A stretch of DNA of 64,000 nucleotides, taken from the NCBI GenBank assembly GCA_036272195.1, contig DATAZE010000049.1, positions 1 through 64,000 on the forward strand, written 5' to 3'. The notes under the pieces were generated by a model. That model did not search any database and was not told the origin of the DNA. It saw nothing but the letters and a program-made list of their open reading frames with translations. This document shows, piece after piece, positions 3,426-62,393 of this stretch. Every line of letters starts with the position of its first letter. The first letter of the stretch is position 1. The translations under genes and the position numbers were made by a program. Source of the DNA: Verrucomicrobiia bacterium. Its GTDB lineage: Bacteria; Verrucomicrobiota; Verrucomicrobiia; Limisphaerales; DASXHY01.

Positions 3426-4805
3426 TCATCCATTCCCAATGCGCTGACGCACAAAGCCGATGTGCTCGCGTAACCCATAAAACTGTCCAGCAAAGGATGC
3501 CGGAACTTTCATGCGGTTCACGGTTTCTTCGATCTGATCCAGTCGCCGCCGCAGTTCTTCGCGTTTGGCTGGTGAGATTTCACCGAACAATTCCCGTTCG
3601 ACTTTCAGCAAGTTGCGATACCAGCGATAAATTCGCAGTTGGGTTCGCAATTTGTAAGCCGTGGGAACCAGCTTCAATCCGGGAATCAACAGCAACACCA
3701 TCGGCACAATCGCCACCAGCAATCTATTCACCAGGCTGGCGAGCCAAAAAGGCAAAGACCGATAAAGAAACGTTTTTCCGGATTCGTAATAGCGCGTGGC
3801 TTCGGGATTGATTTTCAATTCCTGTTTGAGGGGCGCCGGAAATTCACCACGCCGTTGAAGCAGTGTGGCGTTGCCGTGCACCTCCCGCGCGGCTTCGAGC
3901 AACAAATCGCAGAGGGCCGGATGCAATCGCGCGCGTCCCACCAATTCCACCGTGGGGCCAATCAGGTGCACGTCGTAGGGCGGCAGATCCTTGCCGAGGT
4001 CGATCGAACCTCGTGGCAGGTCGAGTCTGTTCAAATAGGAAAATCGCCGCGTGTAGCCATCCGCCTGCTTGAAATCGTACATCTGGACGCCCGGCGCGCG
4101 GAGCAAAGTGCGCATGGTTTGAGGCGAAGCGGAATCGCCCATCAGAAAAACGGCGTCGACTTTGCCATCCAACAAACCTTTCGCGGCATCTTCCGCATCC
4201 AAATCAAGAAATGTCGTTGTTCCGTCAGCACGAACGCCATTGGTCCCGAGCAAAGTCAGTGCGAGCGTGCGCGCCCCACTGCCAGGAGCGCCGACGGCAA
4301 GTTTTTTGCCAGCGAAGTCGGACAAGAGATTTACCGGCGCTGAACTCCGATAAAATATCAACAGGGGCTGATAAGAAATGCTGCCGAGGGAAAGCAGGCT
4401 GGAATTTTGATCGGATTCCGGCTCGCCGGTTTGAACGAAACCGATGTCCACGCGAAATTTCGGATTGGAGAGCCGGCGGAGGTTTTCCACGGAACCTTCC
4501 GAAGGGAGAATTTTCAATACCACTCCATTGCTCGAAAGGATGTCACGATACCGTTCGGCAATGCGCTCATAGGAACTGCCGGCCGGCCCGCTCGTGATAA
4601 TCAAGGTCCGGGGAGGCGCTGAATGAATCGACCAAAAAATCGCCGCGACTATTACCGCCACGATAAAAAGAACCGTGCCCGCCGCGGCTGTCCGCGTCAT
4701 CCCAAAATTCTCCGTGAACGTGGACAGCACTTGCGAAACGACCATCGGTTCGCTTTTTCCCGTGCTGTCGGGCCCGCGCGTATTTTCTTTTTCGTCGGAG
4801 TTCAT
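3426..4805 (-). CDS. TAXI-family TRAP-transporter solute-binding protein-like, with C-terminal TM helix and coiled-coil tail
   Basis: LIITSGPAGSSYERIAERYRDIL...SEGSVENLRRLSN...VDIGFVQTG resembles the TAXI (TIGR02122-like) N-terminal region. N-terminal signal anchor, C-terminal hydrophobic helix + charged coiled coil. Confidence 0.5.
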   Translation of the reverse strand: MNSDEKENTRGPDSTGKSEPMVVSQVLSTFTENFGMTRTAAAGTVLFIVAVIVAAIFWSIHSAPPRTLIITSGPAGSSYERIAERYRDILSSNGVVLKILPSEGSVENLRRLSNPKFRVDIGFVQTGEPESDQNSSLLSLGSISYQPLLIFYRSSAPVNLLSDFAGKKLAVGAPGSGARTLALTLLGTNGVRADGTTTFLDLDAEDAAKGLLDGKVDAVFLMGDSASPQTMRTLLRAPGVQMYDFKQADGYTRRFSYLNRLDLPRGSIDLGKDLPPYDVHLIGPTVELVGRARLHPALCDLLLEAAREVHGNATLLQRRGEFPAPLKQELKINPEATRYYESGKTFLYRSLPFWLASLVNRLLVAIVPMVLLLIPGLKLVPTAYKLRTQLRIYRWYRNLLKVERELFGEISPAKREELRRRLDQIEETVNRMKVPASFAGQFYGLREHIGFVRQRIGNG

Positions 4806-10866: not shown

Positions 10867-10872
10867 CGATGA
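10462..10872 (+). CDS. four helix bundle protein (TIGR02436 / 23S-rRNA intervening-sequence protein family)
   Basis: MKLEAWQRGMDL...ANIGEGYGRRS..EYLQFLYIAKGSLAE... is a strong family signature. GAGGA SD 6 nt upstream of ATG 10462. Confidence 0.85.
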   Translation: MKLEAWQRGMDLFAMAYRMSGHVSDFKLKSQSRDSAQSVSANIGEGYGRRSLPEYLQFLYIAKGSLAETLTRAIGFRSVETLSSDDFEEFDKLHYEVENKLLRLIESLESKRERNDWRDTLPSSNPKIQPSIYPSR

Positions 10873-12095
10873 ACTTCCTGACCGAGTTACGCGAAGGCCT
10901 GGCGATTTCCTGGAGCGCCATTCGCGCGAACCGGTTGCGCTCCGTGCTTGCCACCCTTGGCATCGTCATTGGGATTGTGACCGTCACACTGATGGGCACC
11001 GCTATCCAGGCGCTGAATCGCTCCTTCGAGAAAAGCATTTCGTTCATCGGCGGCGACGTCCTGTATGTGGATCGAGGCTCGTGGTTCATGCAATCCTACC
11101 AGGAATGGCGGGACTCGCAAAAGCGCCCGGCGCTCTCACTTTCGGAAGCGGATGGTTTGGCGGAACAACTCACACTTTCGAGCGCCGTGACTTCCGTGGC
11201 CTCCACCGATGAGCCGGTGAAATACAAAAAGCATAGCTCAGGAGGGGTTTCGATTGTTGGCACCACCGAGAATTTCATGTTCACCATGGGCTTTTCGATT
11301 GCTGAAGGCCGTTTTCTCTCCGGCCCGGAATGCGATTTCGGCCGACCCGTCTGTGTCATCGGAGCCACCGTGGCCACCAATTTGTTTCCGCACGAACCAC
11401 CGGTCGGGAACAAGGTGCTCATCGGCAATTTGCCGTTTCAAGTTGTGGGCGTGCTCGATAAACAGGGCGGGTTCGTCGATAAGAATGTCGATAACCAGGT
11501 GATGATTCCCATGCCTCAATATATTTCGCATTTCGACGATAGCCCCGACCTGCAAATTCAGGTGAAAGTGAAAGACATGGCGCAGGTGGATGAAGCCAAG
11601 GATGAATTGCGGCTGATCATGCGCCGCCTGCGTCGACTCGCGCCAAATGACCCGGACAATTTCGCCATCAATCAGCAGGACCAGATCCTCACCATGTTCC
11701 ACGCGGTCGCCGGGACTATTGGAGCCATCGGGCTTTTTGTCACCGGACTTTCGCTGTTCGTGGGCGGCATCGGCATCATGAATATCATGTTTGTGTCCGT
11801 GGCCGAACGAACGCGTGAAATCGGCATTCGCAAAGCCATCGGCGCGAAACGGCGAACAATCCTCCTCCAATTTTTAATTGAAGCCGCGAGCATTTGCCTT
11901 ATGGGCGGATTCATCGCATTGGCCATCGCGTGGCCGATGACGTTGTTGATGCAACGGATGATGCCGGCGGAGTTGTCGTTGAATGTGGCTGGTGTCGCGC
12001 TCGGCGTGGCGCTGGTGACGGGTGTGCTGGCGGGATTTTTTCCCGCGTGGCGGGCGGCAAGGATGAACCCGGTGGATGCACTTAGGAACGAATGA
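10869..12095 (+). CDS. ABC transporter permease, FtsX/MacB-like (4 TM + periplasmic domain)
   Basis: N-term LRSVLATLGIVIGIVTV, large periplasmic domain, C-terminal FtsX motif ERTREIGIRKAIGAKRRTI. Confidence 0.85.
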   Translation: MNFLTELREGLAISWSAIRANRLRSVLATLGIVIGIVTVTLMGTAIQALNRSFEKSISFIGGDVLYVDRGSWFMQSYQEWRDSQKRPALSLSEADGLAEQLTLSSAVTSVASTDEPVKYKKHSSGGVSIVGTTENFMFTMGFSIAEGRFLSGPECDFGRPVCVIGATVATNLFPHEPPVGNKVLIGNLPFQVVGVLDKQGGFVDKNVDNQVMIPMPQYISHFDDSPDLQIQVKVKDMAQVDEAKDELRLIMRRLRRLAPNDPDNFAINQQDQILTMFHAVAGTIGAIGLFVTGLSLFVGGIGIMNIMFVSVAERTREIGIRKAIGAKRRTILLQFLIEAASICLMGGFIALAIAWPMTLLMQRMMPAELSLNVAGVALGVALVTGVLAGFFPAWRAARMNPVDALRNE

Positions 12096-12103
12096 ACAAT
12101 CAT

Positions 12104-12653
12104 GGTGGGGCGAGACTCCGTCGAGCCCTATCTAATTATGAATCCGAACGATTCAAATATTGAAGTCGGCAGAAAAAATCCATCAACGGGCGTCCACGTT
12201 CATTTTGGAGAATCAACGATAGTGTTGTTGACTGTGACCACTGAAAACAGGATGCCTTGGCTGGCGAATCCGCTTGCCGACCGGCTTCTGCGAGAAACCT
12301 GGCAAGACGCGAGAGCGTGGCTGGTTGGCGACTACCTGTTAATGCCCGATCACCTTCATGCCTTTTGCGCACCCCAAGACTTTTCATTTTCAATTGAGCA
12401 ATGGATGACTTTTTGGAAGCGCGATTTTCGGCGACGACATGGCCGGGAGGATTGGCGCTTTCAATCTCGTGGCTGGCATCATCGCCTTCGCCATGGCGAA
12501 GACCACTCCACCAAGTGGCTTTACATTCAGGAAAATCCGGTTCGTAAAGGACTTGCGAACAGAATCGAGGATTGGCTGTACAAGGGATCAATTCATTACA
12601 TCAGATGGTAACTCGCAACAAAAGATCAGGGCTCGACGGAGTCTCGCCCCACC
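12104..12653. mobile_element. RAYT unit: REP-associated tyrosine transposase gene flanked by perfect 26-bp inverted repeats
   Basis: 12104-12129 GGTGGGGCGAGACTCCGTCGAGCCCT; 12628-12653 is its exact reverse complement. Each arm is itself an imperfect hairpin. Inserted between the two ftsX genes. Confidence 0.7.
12138..12611 (+). CDS. REP-associated tyrosine transposase (RAYT, IS200/IS605-like Y1 HUH transposase)
   Basis: HUH motif PDHLHAF, C-terminal catalytic Tyr region WLYIQENPVRKGL. Collinear with E. coli YafM/TnpA_REP (VLPEHMHCIW; YIYINPVKHGWV). Alternative start ATG 12102 overlapping the left IR. Confidence 0.8.
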   Translation: MNPNDSNIEVGRKNPSTGVHVHFGESTIVLLTVTTENRMPWLANPLADRLLRETWQDARAWLVGDYLLMPDHLHAFCAPQDFSFSIEQWMTFWKRDFRRRHGREDWRFQSRGWHHRLRHGEDHSTKWLYIQENPVRKGLANRIEDWLYKGSIHYIRW

Positions 12654-12697
12654 GTAGGGGGGCACTCCTTCTCGCCGAGCTAAACGAAAGCTTTCGC

Positions 12698-13906
12698 ATG
12701 GGCATGGGCGCTTTGGCGGCGCACAAGTTGCGTTCGGCGCTCACGCTGCTGGGCGTGCTCATCGGCGTGTTTTCCATCATCGTGGTGATGACCGCCATGC
12801 GCGTCTTGCAGCACAATGTCGAGGAGAACCTCAGCCAGATGGGCGCCCAGACTTTCATGGTCCGCAAGGCTCCAATGATTTTTTTCGACAGCCCGGACGG
12901 ATTTGAAAAATTCCGGCGGCGGAAAAATATCACCATGGCCCAGGTAAAACGGCTCGACGATAAAACAACCTTGCCGGCGAGCATCGGAATGGAAACGTCG
13001 TTTTGGGCGGGTGAAATGCAGACCCGCTACGGAAAAAGCGCCCCCGATGTGCCCGTCTTCGGCGAAACCCCCGGCAGTTTTCCCGCGCATAACTGGATCG
13101 TGCAGGACGGGCGCGCCTTATTGGAAATGGATGTGGACGGCATACGCGATGTTTGCGTGCTGGGCAACAAGCTTGCCGAAACTCTTTTCCCGCACAGCCC
13201 GGCGCTCGGCGAATGGTTAAAGATCGACGGCATCAATTATTTGATCATCGGCGTTCTTGAATCCCGCGGCGGCACGCTCGGCGGCAACCAGGATAATTTT
13301 GTCGTGATGCCCATCACCACCGGCTTGAACCGTTACGGACGCTATGGACGCAGCTTGAATGTGCTTGTGGAGGCGCGCGATGCGGCGAGTTACAACGCCA
13401 CGGAGGAGGAAGTGCGCGGCGCGTTGCGGGTCATCCGCAAGGTGCCGCCGGGAGAGGAGGACGACTTCGAGCTTTTTTCCAACGATTCGATGATCTCGCA
13501 GTTCAACGATTTCACGCGCGCAGTCCGCATCGGCGTGGCACTGGTCAGTTCGATCGCGCTGCTCGCCGCCGGGATCGGCATCATGAACATCATGCTCGTC
13601 TCCGTCACGGAGCGAACGCGCGAAATCGGCATCCGCCGCGCCGTGGGTGCGAAGAAGCGCAACATCATGGCACAATTCATCATGGAAGCGATCGTGTTGT
13701 GCGAGGTGGGCGGCGTGATCGGCGTGGGGTTGGGTATACTCGGAGGAAATGTCCTGGCACTGGTCTTGAAATTGCCGCCGGTGATCCCGGTGGATTGGGT
13801 GGTGCTGGGCCTGTTGATTTGCTCGGTGGTGGGAGTTGTGTTCGGGACTTATCCGGCGTTTAAAGCGGCGAATCTGGATCCGATTGAGTCATTGCGATAC
13901 GAATGA
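12698..13906 (+). CDS. ABC transporter permease, FtsX/MacB-like (second permease)
   Basis: KLRSALTLLGVLIGVFSII..., ERTREIGIRRAVGAKKRNI. The ORF-track start 12572 lies inside the RAYT gene. First ATG after the right IR is 12698; the native start may have been displaced by the insertion. Confidence 0.75.
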   Translation: MGMGALAAHKLRSALTLLGVLIGVFSIIVVMTAMRVLQHNVEENLSQMGAQTFMVRKAPMIFFDSPDGFEKFRRRKNITMAQVKRLDDKTTLPASIGMETSFWAGEMQTRYGKSAPDVPVFGETPGSFPAHNWIVQDGRALLEMDVDGIRDVCVLGNKLAETLFPHSPALGEWLKIDGINYLIIGVLESRGGTLGGNQDNFVVMPITTGLNRYGRYGRSLNVLVEARDAASYNATEEEVRGALRVIRKVPPGEEDDFELFSNDSMISQFNDFTRAVRIGVALVSSIALLAAGIGIMNIMLVSVTERTREIGIRRAVGAKKRNIMAQFIMEAIVLCEVGGVIGVGLGILGGNVLALVLKLPPVIPVDWVVLGLLICSVVGVVFGTYPAFKAANLDPIESLRYE

Positions 13907-13922
13907 ACGTTTTCCTGCGAAC

Positions 13923-13952
13923 GCTGACGTCCCGCCGGCGGGACGTCAGCGC
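13923..13952. terminator. perfect 30-bp palindrome (13-bp stem) between convergent genes, bidirectional terminator-like
   Basis: GCTGACGTCCCGCCGGCGGGACGTCAGC directly after ftsX2 stop (13906) and before the end of the minus-strand DUF1573 gene. Confidence 0.45.
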
Positions 13953-13980
13953 TCCCAGGATTGAAAGCCGTTCTCGGACG

Positions 13981-17274: not shown

Positions 17275-17340
17275 CAGAGCGCGGACTTCAGTCCGCGTGT
17301 CTCCATACAATTAATAACTCGCGGACTGAAGTCCGCGCTC
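17275..17340. terminator. 20-bp perfect inverted repeat (arms themselves palindromic) between convergent genes
   Basis: AGAGCGCGGACTTCAGTCCGCG ...23 nt... CGCGGACTGAAGTCCGCGCTC. Lies between the phosphoesterase stop (17272) and the SNF2 helicase stop (17353). Confidence 0.4.
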
Positions 17341-22041: not shown

Positions 22042-22124
22042 ACGAACCTGTCGCGCAGCAGTGATTCGCTCTTGAACATTCCTCACTGGATTCCCCGATT
22101 GAACTCATGTAACGTTCCGCGACT

Positions 22125-23271
22125 ATGTTTGACACCATCACGGCGGAAATTTCGACGGCGGCGGAGAAACTCGCGCATCTGCGGAGGTTTCTTTGACGTC
22201 CCGGGCGCGCAAAAACGGATAACGGAACTGACTGCTTTGATGGCGGGTGAGACCTTCTGGAACAGTCGCGAACACGCCCAAAAGGTCATCGACGAATCCA
22301 ATTCGCTCCGCAATAAGATCGAGCCATTGCTCAAGGCGGAAAAGCAACTCGAAGATTTCCAGGTGATGGTCGAGTTGGGTGAAGCCGAGCCGCCAGAGGC
22401 CCAGGCTAAAATCCAAAAAGAACTCGAAGCCGACCTCGCCAAGTTTTTCAAACAACTTGAGGCGACGGAACTGCGGGTTTTTCTCAACGGCCCGCACGAC
22501 AAGAATAATTGCATCCTGAGCATCAACTCCGGCGCGGGTGGCACCGAGGCCTGCGATTGGGCGAATATGCTCCTGCGGATGTATCAACGCTGGGCGGAAT
22601 CGCGCGGCTGGGAGATTGAGGTCACCGACGCGTTGCCCGGTGAAGGCGCGGGCATCAAAAGCGCCACCATGCTGATCACGGGGGAGAATGCCTACGGCTT
22701 TTGCAAAGCGGAGCGTGGCGTTCATCGGCTCGTGCGCATCTCGCCGTTTGATTCCAACAAACGTCGCCATACCAGTTTCGCGAGCGTGGACACGATTGCG
22801 GAACTCGAGGAGGACACCACGGAAATCGTCATTCCGCCGAATGAATTTTCGGTGGACACCTTTCGTTCCGGCGGCAAAGGCGGCCAGAACGTGAACAAGG
22901 TGGAAACTGCAGTGCGTATTACGCACATTCCCACCGGCCTGGTCGTGGCTTCGCAAGCGCAACGTTCGCAGCATCAGAACCGCGCCACCGCGATGAAGCT
23001 CCTGCTGTCCCGCATTTTCGCGCAACGGCTCGATGCCGCCAAGGCGGACATGGAAAAATTTTATGGCGAAAAAGGCAGCGTCTCCTGGGGCAACCAGATT
23101 CGCAGCTACGTTTTTCAACCTTACCGAATGGTCAAAGACCTGCGCACCGGCGTTGAGACGAGCGACGTGCAAGGCGTAATGGATGGCAACCTTGATCCAT
23201 ACGTTAACGGCTGGCTACGCGCCGGCTGCCCGGCGAAGCGCATGCAGGGCGTGAAGGATGAAGAAGATTAA
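22125..23271 (+). CDS. prfB: peptide chain release factor 2, with programmed +1 ribosomal frameshift at 22191-22197 (CTT TGA C)
   Basis: Frame-0 ORF ATG 22125...LRRFL-TGA. SD-like GGAGG 3 nt upstream of CTTTGAC is the canonical RF2 autoregulatory site. The +1 frame continues DVPGAQKRITEL... through SPF, GGQ (SGGKGGQNVNK) and RF2 motifs to 23271. Confidence 0.9.
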
Positions 23272-23344: not shown

Positions 23345-24241
23345 ATGGCAAATATTTTAGATACCATCGTTGAAGAAAAGAAACGCGAGGTCGCGCGGCT
23401 ACCGGAGCGCGTGCTGGCCGCGGGCGATTTACGCGATGCCATGCTGGAACACGGCGAACGGCGCGATTTCATGGCTGCGCTAAGATCACGTAGCAGCCGA
23501 GGTAACGAGGCTCAAATCAAACCGGAGCCTCCTAACGTCGGCGGCTACAATTCAATTGCGCTGATTGCGGAAGTGAAGAAGGCCTCCCCATCGGCGGGCA
23601 TTATTTGCAAAGATTTTGATCCCGTTAAGATTGCCAGGGAATACGAAGCGGCAGGCGCGAGTTGTTTGTCAGTGCTAACGGACGAAAAGTTTTTCCAAGG
23701 CTCGCTGGATTACCTGCGGCAAATTCGCGCAGCCGTGAAGCTGCCGCTGTTGCGCAAGGATTTCATCATCGACGAGCGGCAGATTCTGGAAGCCATCGAG
23801 TGGGGCGCGGATGCGATTTTGTTGATCGTGGCGATTCTCGACGACGAGCGCTTGAAACGCTTCCATTCACTGGCGAAAGGCGCTGGCTTGTCTGTGCTGG
23901 TGGAAGTGCACGACGAAGCTGAATTGGAACGCGCGCTGGCGATTGGCGCCGATCTCATTGGCGTGAACAATCGCGATTTGAAAACTTTCAAAGTGGATTT
24001 AGGAACGACGGAACGGCTGGCGGCTAAACTTTATAGTGGCACGGGCATCTTGCCCGTGCGATTGCAGAAAGAAACGCACGGGCAAGATGCCCGTGCCACT
24101 ATGCTCGTCGCCGAAAGCGGCATTCACACGCGAGCGGACGTCGAGCGGTTGACCAAATGCGGCGCGGCGGCAATTCTGGTTGGCGAATCGTTAATGAAGG
24201 GCGGGGATATTCGGGCGAAAGTGAAGGAATTGATTGCCTGA
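23345..24241 (+). CDS. trpC: indole-3-glycerol phosphate synthase, carrying an in-frame 22-aa insertion encoded by a palindromic repeat
   Basis: IGPS motifs (ALIAEVKKASPSAG, SVLTDEKFFQGS, LPLLRKDFIIDERQILEA, VLVEVHDE, IGVNNRDL, VAESGI). Start at MANILDTIVEEKK (23345); the upstream part of the track ORF is the hairpin region. Confidence 0.85.
   Translation: MANILDTIVEEKKREVARLPERVLAAGDLRDAMLEHGERRDFMAALRSRSSRGNEAQIKPEPPNVGGYNSIALIAEVKKASPSAGIICKDFDPVKIAREYEAAGASCLSVLTDEKFFQGSLDYLRQIRAAVKLPLLRKDFIIDERQILEAIEWGADAILLIVAILDDERLKRFHSLAKGAGLSVLVEVHDEAELERALAIGADLIGVNNRDLKTFKVDLGTTERLAAKLYSGTGILPVRLQKETHGQDARATMLVAESGIHTRADVERLTKCGAAAILVGESLMKGGDIRAKVKELIA
24035..24100. repeat. REP-like doublet: two inverted copies of a 26-bp palindromic unit (AGTGGCACGGGCATCTTGCCCGTGCG) with 14-nt spacer, inside the trpC reading frame
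   Basis: Copy 1 24035-24060, copy 2 (inverted) 24075-24100. 66 bp = 22 codons starting on a codon boundary (SGTGILPVRLQKETHGQDARAT), no stop. Third copy at 36676-36701. Confidence 0.7.
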
Positions 24242-24323
24242 ATGGCGGGGGTTCGAGCGCCGTAGGCGCGGAATATTTGCAGAACACGTCGCGAAAAAAT
24301 TCCAAAGCTCAAAACCGTTGCTA

Positions 24324-25175
24324 TTAATTTGCAGGGTATACATTGTTTGTAGACTTCGGATCATGCGAATAAATCAGGCTGTTCAATTTCGCCACCGCAT
24401 CTTCGTTGCCCTGCTGCGAACATTTCTTAAGCCAGTATATTGCGAGGTCGCGGTTTGTTTCACACCCCTGCCCCTTCAAATAGTGAAGTGCCAAGCCGTA
24501 TTGTGCGGAAACGCTTCCGTTTGTGGCCTCGGGCGCGAGCCAGATCACCGCATTTGATTGTGCGATGAATTGCGCTAATTGGGATCGGGCTTTTGCCGCT
24601 GCGTTGGCCTTGGATACCGCCTCATTATATTTCGACACCCATTCGGGGGGAGGCAAGCACGGTGTTCCGTAGTCGATAGCACGGATTGTCCTCGATCCTC
24701 CAGAAACCGCGGTGTAACTATAGGTGCCGATGTACCGCCCGAGAAAATGCTCTTGAATCGAAATAACCTCGTTCTCAGCAACGGAAAACGGAAAGTTTTT
24801 CACAAAGAATTCTCGATTGTCGTCATGATAAGCATCGCTTCCGTAATAATGCGGGCTTTCTCCGAAATCTCCCATTATCCGAATTCCCTCGGGCTGAACC
24901 TCTACCACTTTTCCGCAAAATTGCACCATGTCGCATCCGGCGACAAAGTTTGTTCCTCCATTAAAAATTCTCCACGGGTGACGATTATATGCCGCTATCA
25001 TTTCTTGGGTGCGAAGCTCTTGTGCGTGTTTTGCTTGTTCGACCTGTTCGGCAGTCACCATAGCATCGATCGTTGTCCCGCCAGAATACTGCCCAACAAA
25101 TTGCCCTCCACCTATTGCGATTTCGATTCCAAAGCTAAATATCGTCGCAAAGAGAATTCGTTGATGTGCATTCAT
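24324..25175 (-). CDS. hypothetical secreted protein with C-terminal Sel1-like repeats, low-GC gene
   Basis: N-terminal hydrophobic segment. C-terminal AQYGLALHYLKGQGCETNRDLAIYWLKKCSQQGNEDA resembles Sel1/TPR-like repeats. Region ~47% GC. Confidence 0.45.
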   Translation of the reverse strand: MNAHQRILFATIFSFGIEIAIGGGQFVGQYSGGTTIDAMVTAEQVEQAKHAQELRTQEMIAAYNRHPWRIFNGGTNFVAGCDMVQFCGKVVEVQPEGIRIMGDFGESPHYYGSDAYHDDNREFFVKNFPFSVAENEVISIQEHFLGRYIGTYSYTAVSGGSRTIRAIDYGTPCLPPPEWVSKYNEAVSKANAAAKARSQLAQFIAQSNAVIWLAPEATNGSVSAQYGLALHYLKGQGCETNRDLAIYWLKKCSQQGNEDAVAKLNSLIYSHDPKSTNNVYPAN

Positions 25176-27837: not shown

Positions 27838-28175
27838 GCCTTGTAGCAGCCTAAGTCGGCCTGCCTTCCTGCAGGCCGTCGCGGGGGACCCAAACCCGGA
27901 TTCCGCAATTGCGGAACGGGGCGGGGCGAACGGCGATGGCGAACCATCGTCGAGGTCACTTTCAGGACCTAGCCCGTCAGCTAACCTCGTCGGCATCTGG
28001 AAGGGCGATCCTCCAGGACCCGCGTGTGCGGGCACCCGCGGTCTCCCCACTCAAAACGCGTTGCGTGTTGTAGCGGCGGTCTATGCCCGTCGCCAAGATA
28101 TGCAGCGGCGCTCCCTGAGCGCCGGACTGACCTTGTAGAACTGCGGCGGTCATAGACCGCTGCTACACGAGCTAC
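27838..28175. repeat. cluster of GTAG...CTAC REP-like palindromic elements (BIME-like) upstream of flotillin gene; alternatively a structured ncRNA
   Basis: GTAG-headed palindromes: 27842 GTAGCAGCC + hairpin GGCCTGC-cttcct-GCAGGCC; 28068 GTAGCGGCGGTCTATG pairs with 28152 CATAGACCGCTGCTAC; 28136-28167 GTAGAACTGCGGCGGTCATAGACCGCTGCTAC; inner hairpin GGCGCTC-cct-GAGCGCC. Confidence 0.35.
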
Positions 28176-30530: not shown

Positions 30531-30603
30531 GTAGCAGCCGACGTCAGGAGGCTCCAATCAGATTTTCCAAAAAAGGAATGAGCCTCCTGATGTCGGCTGC
30601 TAC
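30531..30603. terminator. 24-bp inverted repeat with 25-nt loop, GTAG...CTAC REP-like, between convergent genes
   Basis: GTAGCAGCCGACGTCAGGAGGCTC ... GAGCCTCCTGATGTCGGCTGCTAC (23/24). Right arm overlaps the stop of the minus-strand DUF2007 gene. Confidence 0.5.
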
Positions 30604-36222: not shown

Positions 36223-36672
36223 ATGTCCGCCCAACCTAAAGCCACGCTGGAGAAAATCATGGAGTTGCTCGGTTTCACCGCCACGGTGGAAGATCACGCC
36301 ATGGAAGACGGCATCCTGCTCGATGTAAAGACCGAGGACTCCGGCCGCCTCATCGGCCGCCAGGGCCAAACGCTGGCGGACCTGCAATACATCGCCAACC
36401 GCTTGTTGTTCCAGCAGGACCCTGCCGCGCCGAAAATCATGGTCGACGTGGGTGGTTATCGCGCCCAGGCTCGCGAAGCGCTCGTCAAGAAAGCCAAAGA
36501 CGCCGCCGAAAAAGTCCGCCGCTGGGGCGATGTGGTTGAACTCGAACCGATGACCGCCTTCGATCGCCGCATCATCCATCAGGCCTTGAAAGATGACCCC
36601 GGCGTCGAAACCGCCAGTGTGGAAGTCGAAGGCACCGACAAGAAGGCGATCCTGCTTAGACCGAAGCACTGA
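36223..36672 (+). CDS. khpB: RNA-binding protein Jag/KhpB (KH + R3H domains)
   Basis: KH region (GRLIGRQGQTLADLQYIANRLL) and R3H region (EPMTAFDRRIIHQALKDDPGVETASVE). Conserved position after yidC. Confidence 0.8.
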   Translation: MSAQPKATLEKIMELLGFTATVEDHAMEDGILLDVKTEDSGRLIGRQGQTLADLQYIANRLLFQQDPAAPKIMVDVGGYRAQAREALVKKAKDAAEKVRRWGDVVELEPMTAFDRRIIHQALKDDPGVETASVEVEGTDKKAILLRPKH

Positions 36673-36675
36673 GAT

Positions 36676-36701
36676 AGTGGCACGGGCATCTTGCCCGTAC
36701 G
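36676..36701. repeat. single copy of the 26-bp REP-like unit (AGTGGCACGGGCATCTTGCCCGTACG)
   Basis: 25/26 identical to the copies inside trpC. Lies between the convergent stops of jag (36672) and the minus-strand gene ending at 36706. Confidence 0.65.
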
Positions 36702-36705
36702 AATC

Positions 36706-37329
36706 TCACTGCATCACATGCCCCGGCATCGAGCACGTCGGCGCGACCCCCACCACATTTAAGCTGTAATTCCCCCCGCTGGGACACTGAGGCATCGATT
36801 GCCCGGGCAAAAAGGGCGCAATATCCACTGGTGTTGGCGTGGCATCCTGCGGCTTGTTATTCTGAACGGCCCACTGCTGCTTCGCCGCCTGCAACATCCG
36901 CAAATTATTGATGCAAGTCATCGTCGCTGCCTGGTTTTGCTTCATCTGCAGGATTTGCTGCTCGGCCATGGCCTTCGCTTTTTCCGCCGTGCGATCCGCC
37001 TGCTGCTGCATTTGGGCCTGGACACGCTCCGTCTGCGCTTGCGCGGACTGCGCTTGCTTCACCATTTGCTGCTTCTCATCCGTCAACTGGCGGACCTGGT
37101 TGCGCAAGCGCAGCAATTCCGCGTTGCCCTCTTGCATTGACGCGATCTGCTCATTCTGCGACGCCACCTGTTTCTGCGCCTCGTCCAACTGCGATTGCAA
37201 CGCCTCAGCTTGCTGGACCTGCGTGCGCGCCTTGGCCAACTCGGCGTCGGTGGAAGCTTTGGAAAAATAAAGCGCACCCGCGCCGACGGCGCACGCCACC
37301 GCAACGATCCAGGGTAAAATGTTCTTCAT
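36706..37329 (-). CDS. hypothetical single-TM coiled-coil protein with C-terminal DUF1559/pseudopilin-like Cys-containing tail
   Basis: N-terminal TM, ~130-aa Q/A-rich coiled coil, C-terminal CINNLRMLQAAKQQWAVQNNK...CPSGGNY motif. Confidence 0.45.
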   Translation of the reverse strand: MKNILPWIVAVACAVGAGALYFSKASTDAELAKARTQVQQAEALQSQLDEAQKQVASQNEQIASMQEGNAELLRLRNQVRQLTDEKQQMVKQAQSAQAQTERVQAQMQQQADRTAEKAKAMAEQQILQMKQNQAATMTCINNLRMLQAAKQQWAVQNNKPQDATPTPVDIAPFLPGQSMPQCPSGGNYSLNVVGVAPTCSMPGHVMQ

Positions 37330-53064: not shown

Positions 53065-53754
53065 TCACCCAAGGCGCGCGAGAAATTTATAAAACGCATA
53101 TCGCCGCATGATCGACCTCACGTAAGCCCTCGTATTCGGAAACCCGATTTGACCGATGAATACTGCGCTGTTGGTCGCCGCCGCGCCGCCGTTCCATTTC
53201 AGTAAATGGCCGCGGCCGGCGTTGTAATCGGCCAACGCGAATGGCAGCGGGTCATCCGTACGCGCGTAACGCTTCATTAATTTGCCCAGGTAAAATGTCC
53301 CCGCCAGAACGTTGGTGCCGGGATCGAAACATTGTTCGTGCGAGAAATTTTGGACGTGCTCAGCCACGGCCCAATCAAGCGCCGCCGCCTCCTGGATTTG
53401 CATCAGGCCGATTTCACCGGCACGACCGCGCCGATCGGGATGAAACCGCGTCTCCCGCCAGATCACTGCCTTCACCAGGAGCGGATCGACATTGTAACGT
53501 TTCGCGGCGGCATTGATTTGTGGTTGGAATTTTCTGCCCTGGGTGGCAGCAAACCACAAATAAACGCCGCCGCTTATGAGTGCCGCCGAGCACAACGCAA
53601 CCAGCAGCAAAATTATCCGGCGCCATTTCACGGCGTCATTGTAGCGGTGCTCCGCGGGCGTCGCATTCCAAATTTCTGATGTGCTCCAATCATTCCGGGA
53701 GCGCTGACGTCTCGGCATCGCCTCACATTTGAGACCCTCGCGCTTGACAGTCAT
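53065..53754 (-). CDS. lytic transglycosylase domain protein (SLT family)
   Basis: N-terminal TM. SLT catalytic region VKAVIWRETRFHPDRRGRAGEIGLMQI...ALADYNAGRG. Start at internal Met to avoid overlap with priA. Confidence 0.75.
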   Translation of the reverse strand: MTVKREGLKCEAMPRRQRSRNDWSTSEIWNATPAEHRYNDAVKWRRIILLLVALCSAALISGGVYLWFAATQGRKFQPQINAAAKRYNVDPLLVKAVIWRETRFHPDRRGRAGEIGLMQIQEAAALDWAVAEHVQNFSHEQCFDPGTNVLAGTFYLGKLMKRYARTDDPLPFALADYNAGRGHLLKWNGGAAATNSAVFIGQIGFPNTRAYVRSIMRRYAFYKFLARLG

Positions 53755-62280: not shown

Positions 62281-62284
62281 GGTT

Positions 62285-62393
62285 GGTCAAATCAGTTAAA
62301 TAAGTTAAATGGGTTAAATTAGTGAATGAGCAGCGAATCGCAGAGTCCCCACCCATTGAACCGATTTAACTTATTTAATTCGTTTAACTGACC
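62285..62393. repeat. AT-rich ~40-bp imperfect inverted repeat pair between emrB and lutA (core TTAAATAAGTTAAAT)
   Basis: GGTCAAATCAGTTAAATAAGTTAAATGGGTTAAATTAGTG ... CCCATTGAACCGATTTAACTTATTTAATTCGTTTAACTGACC. Strongly AT-rich in a 60% GC context. Confidence 0.5.

Follow-up and report, generated by a model that had tools for sequence, protein, structure and literature searches.

An In-Frame REPIN in the trpC Gene of a Verrucomicrobiia Bacterium Occupies an Enzyme Loop Repeatedly Refilled with Repeats among Orthologs

Introduction

How does a palindromic repeat of a class known mainly from extragenic DNA come to be translated, in frame, within the gene of a biosynthetic enzyme, and what keeps it there? 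The question is raised by a 64,000-nt stretch of DNA from a Verrucomicrobiia bacterium (assembly GCA_036272195.1, contig DATAZE010000049.1, positions 1 to 64,000), the whole of which is called the window below. Its trpC gene, encoding indole-3-glycerol-phosphate synthase (IGPS), contains two inverted copies of a repetitive extragenic palindromic (REP) sequence. An arrangement of two inverted REPs with a short spacer was named REPIN by Bertels and Rainey in 2011 (PMC3116915). The trpC element is such a REPIN and, as argued below, is probably selfish DNA that is tolerated in a loop where REPs have landed over a long time.

Structure and Folding of the REP Doublet

The doublet lies at positions 24035-24100 of the window and reads AGTGGCACGGGCATCTTGCCCGTGCG, then ATTGCAGAAAGAAA, then CGCACGGGCAAGATGCCCGTGCCACT; its two 26-nt arms are perfectly complementary, and the coordinates of its parts are given in Table 1. 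It begins on a codon boundary of trpC (24035-23345 = 690), and the encoded peptide SGTGILPVRLQKETHGQDARAT sits between ...AAKLY and MLVAESGI. The original prediction, made from the letters of this DNA, had described two inverted 26-bp units with a 14-nt spacer, 66 bp in all, starting on a codon boundary and free of stops; both the letters and the translation of the open reading frame (ORF) agree with it. Three of the six reading frames of the element are open. The full inverted repeat covers positions 24033-24102 and has 31-nt arms that are 97% complementary.

Folded as RNA, the doublet gives a hairpin whose stem measures about 29 bp plus 2, with a minimum free energy (MFE) of -68.4 kcal/mol and a z-score of -11.5; as DNA, it folds at -39.9 kcal/mol. 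The very strong hairpin that had been expected was thus found, although its stem is longer than the 25 bp given earlier and the palindrome extends beyond 24035-24100. Each 26-nt unit taken alone is a hairpin with a 9-bp stem and a 3-nt loop, with energies of -12.1 (left) and -11.7 (right) kcal/mol as single-stranded DNA (ssDNA), and none of 200 shuffles was as stable.

No target-site duplication was found at the doublet: its flanks (...CTTTAT/AGTGG...CCACT/ATGCTC) contain no direct repeat, the AT/AT only lengthens the palindrome, and the same holds for the ortholog copies. The Rfam search gave only sub-threshold matches of about 45 bits to many unrelated microRNA-precursor models (mir-2831, mir-2041, mir-5595 and others; gathering scores 59-100). 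These were rejected as generic matches to a perfect hairpin, the alignments pairing bases without sequence identity.

Identity and Distribution of the REP Family

One genome per species was scanned for the REP core (GCACGGGCA-NNN-TGCCCGTGC), and at least 120 loci (L001-L120) were obtained. The core matches listed came from metagenome-assembled genomes (MAGs) of Planctomycetota, Verrucomicrobiota, Desulfobacterota, Acidobacteriota, Armatimonadota, Sumerlaeota, Zixibacteria and others, often with several per genome; a few high-GC Actinobacteria were also among them and look like chance or terminator matches. Among the matches listed, a GTGG or GTAG head was present on exactly one side in 105 of 128 copies of the core palindrome, where about 6% would be expected by chance, and, of the 104 copies that could be oriented, 89 had a TCT or TCC loop.

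In the window, the 26-mer occurs at 24035 (+), at 24075 (-) and, with one mismatch, at 36676 (+); it was found 0 times in shuffled sequence. The copy claimed earlier at 36676 is real and is a single unit located between convergent ORFs. The 64 kb contain three units (two in trpC and one extragenic), and several dispersed copies are present in related genomes, with at least four loci in OY969416. In addition, a doublet outside trpC in a Verrucomicrobiia MAG (L017) is almost identical and has the same 66-nt layout. The spacers of this doublet and of the trpC orthologs are similar to the window spacer in length and partly in sequence. Given the near-identical doublet and the copies in many genomes, the 26-mer is not limited to trpC and 36676, a possibility that the original prediction had set against its own reading.

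The unit has two features of a REP, a 9-bp stem-loop and the tetranucleotide GTGG at an end of the palindrome; the pair has the structure of a REPIN, i.e., inverted REPs, a short spacer, one long hairpin and correlated arms. The trpC element is thus a REPIN whose two inverted REP hairpins have a GTGG head, belong to the GTAG/GTRG-tagged REP superfamily and are of the type of the Opitutus terrae 'GTAG-19' elements. The description of a REP-type inverted doublet, in frame and ahead of the VAESGI strand, was borne out, REPIN being the more precise name.

Position of the Inserts in TrpC

The trpC product is 100% identical to P0001, 'MAG TPA: ... TrpC [Verrucomicrobiae bacterium]', and matches the Pfam profile IGPS (PF00218) over its full length (profile positions 1-254 of 254; 291.7 bits, E 5.2e-87). 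The motifs AEVKKASPS, RKDF, VEVH, VNNR, AESG and VGES were kept in all 37 aligned orthologs, and the catalytic-site residues E76, K78, K138, E187, N208, E257 and S282, together with others, were invariant in the ortholog alignment. By its full-length profile match and its catalytic-site motifs, the product is a full-length member of the IGPS family. The closest solved structure was 3tsm (3.5e-56); many designed IGPS-derived proteins were found among the solved structures, IGPS being a popular design scaffold.

An AlphaFold model of the window TrpC built on the 37 orthologs contains a confident barrel (predicted template modeling score 0.81), and its predicted local distance difference test score falls below 50 only at residues 50-68 and 233-249. 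The first segment, located between helix 42-47 and strand 72-77, is a second insert, termed site A; the other, located between helix 220-231 and strand 253-257, is the insert formed by the doublet, termed site B. The model therefore supports the surface-loop location proposed earlier, placing the doublet in a disordered loop ahead of strand 253-257. At site B, about 19 residues of the window TrpC have no counterpart in solved IGPS structures; 3tsm, for instance, reads ERLAKMAPSDRLLVGESGI there.

In (beta-alpha)8 barrels, the face opposite the catalytic C-terminal strand ends is that of the alpha-to-beta connections. Judging from the order of the secondary-structure elements, both inserts would be on this non-catalytic face, the site B insert in the alpha6-to-beta7 connection and the site A insert in the connection before beta1. 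The site A insert is itself an in-frame palindrome (Table 1), which the original prediction had missed. It is more degenerate than the doublet at site B: its arms have 3 and 2 mismatches to an intergenic copy at 30531-30603, and its RNA fold has an energy of -39.3 kcal/mol (z -5.2).

The Orthologous Loop in Related Genomes

To compare the loop, 80 trpC loci from metagenomes (L121-L200) were used, of which 74 were usable; among these, the loop proved to be exceptionally variable. Site B was empty (KKIGAGKILVAESGI) in 13 orthologs and enlarged by 5-6 amino acids (aa), mostly heptanucleotide tandem repeats, in 24. It held two abutting REPs in 8, window-like GTGG-CACGGGC doublets in 7 (8 if the partly decayed copy of L133 is counted), GTAG-GACAGGC doublets in 11 and inverted GGAAGAT heptamer arrays in 9. 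REPs were thus present at site B in about a third of the orthologs, and the REP head started at the same nucleotide position in every ortholog that bore one. Site A was empty in 54 orthologs, with a GTAG palindrome in 9, heptamer repeats in 8 and other sequences in 3; the two sites vary independently of one another.

The element can hardly be called rare, as had been proposed, or a one-off event, with this occupancy of the same loop and with such dimers already tabulated in O. terrae (PMC3733652). Orthologs with an empty loop exist, as expected, and the gap that they leave is of about 19 aa instead of 22. Thus, 22 aa are encoded by the element, and the net gain, relative both to these orthologs and to the solved structures, is about 19 aa. 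The peptide SGTGVSPVR..KETHGQDARAT is common to several orthologs, the very circumstance that had been named as evidence of an ancient loop. The repeat reading stands nevertheless, because the ortholog DNA is canonical REP with intact hairpins and the head motif.

A neighbor-joining tree was constructed from 696 masked trpC nucleotides; it was star-like and was used just to obtain a rough minimum of state changes. With six state classes, site B required at least 29 changes on this tree, whereas permuted labels gave a mean of 43 and a minimum of 37. As the observed number is below the permuted minimum, some inheritance is indicated, together with high turnover. Loci L170 and L189 (Kimura two-parameter distance 0.058) have an identical right REP and different left REPs. 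Decayed copies were also present at site B, namely those of L157 (-26.8 kcal/mol) and L133, as expected for non-essential DNA.

At site B, the heptamers of these loci included TCGTCAC, AAATTCG and CCCTCGA; at site A, they included ACGCAAC and ACGCATC. The heptamer repeats have period-7 scores of 0.6-0.9, and three units add 7 aa in frame. The class of inverted (GGAAGAT)n / (ATCTTCC)n arrays encodes MEDGRWKMAK...PSSILNSPSSP.

Preservation of the Hairpins

Base pairs were counted in 13 distinct ortholog doublets. In the long arm-to-arm hairpin, 93.7% of the cells were paired and 11 of 27 pairs had changed on both sides; for the local REP hairpins, the corresponding values were 99.5% and 6 of 16. 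None of 500 shuffles reached the covariation score observed for the long and local hairpins, and shifting the partner column lowered pairing to 27-51%. The arm-to-arm mismatches cluster at inner-loop positions, which gives rise to 'heterodimers'.

When copies of a single REP type were compared, a fraction of 0.43 of the trpC third codon positions differed, against 0.10 at positions 1+2, 0.07 in the REP head and stems, 0.18 in the REP loops and 0.22 in the spacer. The REP stems thus differ about six times less than the third codon positions of the gene that contains them. A single ancient, neutrally decaying insertion cannot explain the low stem divergence together with the kept pairing; the REP copies are renewed or constrained and are not passively decaying. 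In the window, L123 and L132, the extragenic copy on the same contig is of the same REP sub-type as the copy in trpC.

RAYT Genes Associated with the REPs

Leads to genes encoding REP-associated tyrosine transposases (RAYTs) came from probe sequences, and the RAYT calls rest on Pfam and NCBIfam. Such a gene lies between REPs at 514 and 1308 in L101 (Planctomycetota) and between REPs at 4682 and 5438 in L014 (Sumerlaeota); in L070, located on the Verrucomicrobiae chromosome OY969416, a REP is found about 90 nt upstream of a RAYT gene. NCBIfam NF047646 'REP-associated tyrosine transposase' was the top match for all three (81.8, 75 and 63 bits, respectively, with a cutoff of 80). A REP-adjoining RAYT gene of L063 (Planctomycetota) was scanned with Pfam alone, and Pfam Y1_Tnp matched the transposases of all four loci. 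All-against-all clustering of the ORFs in the 120 census loci revealed no dominant neighbor family.

The window also contains a RAYT-like gene, flanked by perfect 25-nt inverted repeats with a GTGG head. Its top match was NF047646, with 66.6 bits (E 2e-18) where the cutoff is 80, and the HUH-like motif DHLHAF and the motif YIQENPVRKGL are present. The locus appears to be a REPtron of a REP type other than that of trpC; the genome thus encodes this class of transposase. The gene lies between two large ORFs (10869-12095 and 12572-13906) that are similar to each other and membrane-permease-like by appearance, and the annotated ORF ends at this locus extend into the 25-nt repeats.

A Y1 transposase directly downstream of trpC in OY969416 (L201) and in L129 was considered as the RAYT of the trpC REPs and rejected, as it is an IS200/IS605 TnpA (NF033573, 63.9 bits, above the cutoff) bounded by long terminal repeats of its own, which bear no relation to the REP.

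Some further observations were made on these REPs and transposases. The REP GT(G/A)GCACGGGCATC(T/C)TGCCCGTGC is nearly unchanged, among the matches listed, across MAGs labelled with at least eight phyla, which fits poorly with the view of REPIN-RAYT systems as lineage-specific and vertically inherited. The RAYTs flanked by the GT(G/A)GCACGGGCATC REP form one family with 32-54% identity (L014 from Sumerlaeota; L063, L098 and L101 from Planctomycetota; L084 from a 'delta proteobacterium'). Hairpins near the census REPs often have other stems and the same loop (AGGAT, GGGAC, GAGAC, TGGAA). In a Planctomycetota MAG (JAKJER010000032; L063 3065-7018), a complete REP-RAYT-REP unit is located in frame within a valyl-tRNA synthetase gene, giving a 1317-aa ORF. 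This unit of about 230 aa (Pfam Y1_Tnp) is placed there between FWYLKYPLEE... and ...THITVATTRPETMLGD, which would be an in-frame transposase in an essential aminoacyl-tRNA synthetase unless the contig is misassembled.

Origin and Maintenance of the trpC REPIN

Any explanation has to account for the identity and location of the element, the predicted disorder of the encoded segment, the turnover at site B and the intact hairpins. REPINs are non-autonomous and, judging from their family, are thought to be copied as ssDNA hairpins by a trans-acting RAYT, a HUH/Y1 tyrosine transposase. A REPIN may have landed in a permissive loop of trpC and survived in frame; with a length that is a multiple of three and no stop in frame, it is translated as a disordered surface loop. 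The enzyme would tolerate this loop and likewise the older-looking second palindrome before beta1. The occupied loop would then act as a landing pad, the REP content of which could be replaced or homogenized from the genome REP pool, either via RAYT acting at the resident REP or by gene conversion. Such renewal would keep the hairpins intact while the rest of trpC diverges, and, since an imprecise deletion would destroy trpC, the element would reside longer. As far as the enzyme is concerned, the insert is most likely no functional module but selfish DNA that is neutral or carries a slight cost; the predicted 29-bp mRNA hairpin might affect translation or sensitivity to RNase III.

Several points weigh against this explanation. 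The mobility through RAYT, the mechanism of renewal and the neutrality are all parts of it that we infer, and no RAYT flanked by a trpC-type REP was found in the 64-kb window, where the only RAYT-like gene uses another repeat. Perfect REP units of the superfamily numbered 38 in trpC and 4 elsewhere in 423 kb (the window and the ortholog loci), a site fidelity that goes beyond passive tolerance alone and, together with the slow stem divergence, would also fit selection on the hairpin. The doublets used for pair counts were chosen by a pattern requiring an intact head and stem and are thus a biased sample, and the tree is poorly resolved owing to the short gene and saturated third positions, so that the number of independent events is approximate. 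In addition, the spacer of the L017 doublet outside trpC has 5 differences in 12 positions from the window spacer, i.e., it is as similar as orthologous spacers are. This likeness, the conservation of the REP consensus across phyla and the selection of intact doublets mean that sequence identity does not date a copy.

If the hairpin itself were selected, the trpC REPIN would be a domesticated element, retained throughout a clade of verrucomicrobia because, in mRNA or ssDNA, it tunes translation, mRNA decay (e.g., as an RNase III substrate), or replication or recombination at the locus. This would agree with the REP head and stems differing less than either class of codon positions (0.07 vs. 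0.43 for third positions and 0.10 for positions 1+2), with two-sided pair changes at 93.7% (long) and 99.5% (local) paired cells, with 38 of the perfect units lying in trpC and 4 in the remainder of the 423 kb and with the RNA MFE of -68 kcal/mol. We nevertheless consider such selection unlikely. Most orthologs have either an empty loop or one that contains unrelated heptamers or other palindromes, and no single structure is required; decayed copies are tolerated, such as that of L157 at -26.8 kcal/mol; and the same elements occur in dozens of unrelated O. terrae ORFs (PMC3733652). Moreover, arm covariation is expected from a REPIN origin, and the REP consensus shows the same degree of conservation across unrelated phyla and outside coding sequence, so that the conservation can stem from the REP/RAYT system and not from trpC. 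It is doubtful, too, that the alpha6-beta7 loop is a conserved intragenic REPIN 'home' across a verrucomicrobial lineage, with hairpins actively kept by site-directed RAYT renewal or by selection for a structured element in the coding sequence while synonymous sites are near-saturated. If true, REPINs would persist at this intragenic site because of a function for the host or for the element, and would not be passive passengers.

The sub-families GTGG-CACGGGC, GTAG-GACAGGC and GCGCAGGC are found at the same nucleotide position, the site B states are interspersed on the tree, and the REP-bearing L127 groups with an empty clade. All this could be read as a separate de novo insertion in each occupied ortholog, at a target in the loop that is recognized by its sequence, without inheritance or renewal of an older copy, the more so as enzymes of the IS200/IS605 type have short specific target sequences. 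However, the state labels are more clustered than permuted ones (29 changes vs. a mean of 43 and a minimum of 37), which points to inheritance. Empty-site orthologs differ locally and contain no obvious REP target, and partial replacements like that in L170/L189, which have an identical right REP but differ by replacement of the left one, fit renewal at an occupied site better than fresh insertion; a hot spot of this kind is therefore very unlikely. Least credible of all are an assembly artefact, which is ruled out because dozens of independent assemblies contain the insert, among them a complete chromosome of 5.9 Mb (L201), and an old lineage-specific loop kept by selection on the peptide with an incidental likeness to repeats. 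The latter might be suggested by the sequence SGTG(V/I)(S/L)PVR..ETHGQDARAT common to several orthologs, but is already contradicted: the same DNA occurs in non-coding DNA and beside RAYT genes, the same peptide is found in unrelated O. terrae proteins (PMC3733652), the segment is predicted to be disordered, and its variation tracks base-pairing and not amino-acid similarity.

Tolerated selfish DNA at a long-lived landing site thus probably describes the trpC REPIN. The 22 aa are encoded by a repeat and are not an IGPS feature, which matters mainly for annotation; the peptides GTG[VI].PV, HGQDARAT and SRGNEAQ/EPPHVG.Y in other proteins should likewise be read as repeat-encoded. The doublet alone is one more case of a documented type, and the comparative pattern in trpC is of moderate interest for researchers working on REPINs and RAYTs. 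A loop of one essential-pathway enzyme that is empty or filled with REPs, heptamers or palindromes in close relatives amounts to a natural experiment. It could be used to study the site choice and retention of REPINs, the renewal of resident copies by RAYT and the tolerance of alpha-to-beta insertions in the TIM barrel, the last of these being relevant to loop engineering.

Other Palindromes and Genes in the Window

The window genome contains several palindromic repeat families, and the features described in the text are listed in Table 1.

Table 1. Positions of the trpC inserts, related repeats and the RAYT-like locus in the window.
Feature	Position	Strand	Evidence or remarks
RAYT-like gene (ORF 12102-12611, 169 aa) with perfect 25-nt inverted GTGG-headed repeats (12104-12128, 12629-12653)	12102-12653	+	NF047646
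trpC (indole-3-glycerol-phosphate synthase), host of both inserts	23345-24241	+	298-aa ORF
Second in-frame trpC palindrome (site A), about residues 49-68 RSSRGNEAQIKPEPPNVGGY	23490-23548	+	GTAG-headed 24-nt arms 23490-23513 and 23525-23548, 11-nt spacer
REPIN, inverted REP dimer in frame in trpC (site B), residues 231-252 SGTGILPVRLQKETHGQDARAT	24033-24102, including AT/AT flanks	+	Repeat search, folding
Left REP unit: GTGG head (24036-24039), stem GCACGGGCA, loop TCT, stem TGCCCGTGC	24035-24060	+	
Doublet spacer ATTGCAGAAAGAAA, 14 nt	24061-24074	+	
Right REP unit, same 26-mer as the left unit, GTGG head on the minus strand	24075-24100	-	
Intergenic doublet of the site A family, GTAGCAGCCGACGTCAGGAGGCTC / inverted copy	30531-30603	+	
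Extragenic single REP of the same family as the doublet, 1 mismatch	36676-36701	+	33-nt gap between convergent ORFs 36223-36672(+) / 36706-37329(-)

Further nested or long palindromes of other sequence families were found at 17277-17340, 28069-28167, 13913-13960 and 62281-62393, and these four lie outside long ORFs; another palindrome, at 53504-53573, may be inside one. The types found in the window include GAGCGCGGACTTCAGTCCGCG doublets and an inverted repeat with 44-nt arms composed of GTTAAAT-like repeats.

The ORF upstream of trpC (22072-23271) encodes a peptide-chain release factor, in whose L201 ortholog the domains PCRF and RF-1 are present; the N-terminus listed for the window ORF (MNIPHWIPRLNS...RRRRNSRICGGFFDV) appears to be out of frame. 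Directly past the trpC stop, a solo terminal inverted repeat GCGCCGTAGGCGCGGAATATTTGCAGA is located at 24257-24283. Terminal repeats of the GCGCCGTAGGCGCGGAATATTTGCAGA type flank the IS200/IS605 transposase between trpC and a GFO_IDH_MocA gene in OY969416 (L201 3880-4510) and in L129 (913-1368). In place of this transposase, the window slot (24324-25175) contains an unrelated 283-aa ORF on the minus strand, for which no NCBIfam match was found.

Comparison with Known Systems

REPINs and RAYTs have been described previously (Bertels and Rainey 2011, PMC3116915; Nunvar 2010; Messing 2012, PMC3479197). Like the REPINs known from this work, the trpC element forms one long hairpin with correlated arms, persists at orthologous positions and is of a REP type that flanks RAYT genes in some genomes. 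Unlike the classical REPINs, which are extragenic and known mainly from Gammaproteobacteria, it is translated. Descriptions of REPIN-RAYT systems present them as mostly vertically inherited, whereas the trpC-type REP is common to many phyla.

Another known case is that of the palindromic elements of Rickettsia (RPEs; Ogata et al. 2000/2002, cited after PMC3733652 and PMC10969869), which are inserted in frame in many functional genes and encode peptides judged to be fold-compatible. According to these descriptions, on which the comparison is based, RPE-1 is about 150 bp long, specific to Rickettsia and without a known link to RAYT, whereas the trpC element is 66-70 bp long and has the GTGG-REP architecture, a type dealt with apart from RPE-1 in PMC3733652. 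By size, host phylum and architecture, it is unlikely to be an RPE, although its in-frame insertion is analogous. Miniature inverted-repeat transposable elements derived from insertion sequences (Correia/NEMIS, ERIC, RUP and others) are similar in being short, non-autonomous inverted-repeat elements that can give in-frame fusions and RNA hairpins. They have the terminal inverted repeats of a parent insertion sequence and target-site duplications, in contrast to the trpC element, which has no duplication and the arms of which are GTGG REP hairpins.

The closest counterparts are the elements of O. terrae described by Di Nocera et al. (2013, BMC Genomics 14:522, PMC3733652), whose Additional file 3 contains about 70 entries for intragenic REPs in ORFs of this species. 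A GT(A/G)G head and a short palindrome are the defining architecture of the GTAG REP superfamily, with a change of the head to GTGG in part of the O. terrae elements. Dimers or grouped repeats encoding 20-30 aa made up over half of the intragenic inserts of that study, some ORFs had two, and in Xanthomonas recB, different REPs were found at about the same site. The trpC element resembles the O. terrae GTAG-17/18/19 dimers in phylum, in its GTAG/GTGG head, in being an inverted dimer with stems in the 6-9-bp range and in its in-frame location in an ordinary enzyme. The GTAG-19 dimers encode GTGVPPVMADQPHGRDARAT in Oter_1564 and GTGVPPVDSGSASDDHGRDARAT in uvrA (Oter_3168). At the peptide level, at which they were compared, the window GTGILPV...HGQDARAT and ortholog GTGVSPV...HGQDARAT are essentially the same as the O. 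terrae GTGVPPV...HGRDARAT. The window-type loop is TCT/TCC, whereas that of the O. terrae GTAG-19 is a variant encoding VPP; trpC is absent from the table of Di Nocera et al., and its host here, a Verrucomicrobiae MAG, belongs to another class or order. In-frame REP dimers are thus known in Verrucomicrobia and are not rare there, and trpC is a new host gene. The study of Di Nocera et al. did not include the occupancy of an orthologous site across many lineages; one enzyme loop repeatedly refilled with REPs, heptamers and other palindromes, with the REP hairpins intact, is, as far as the literature consulted goes, new.

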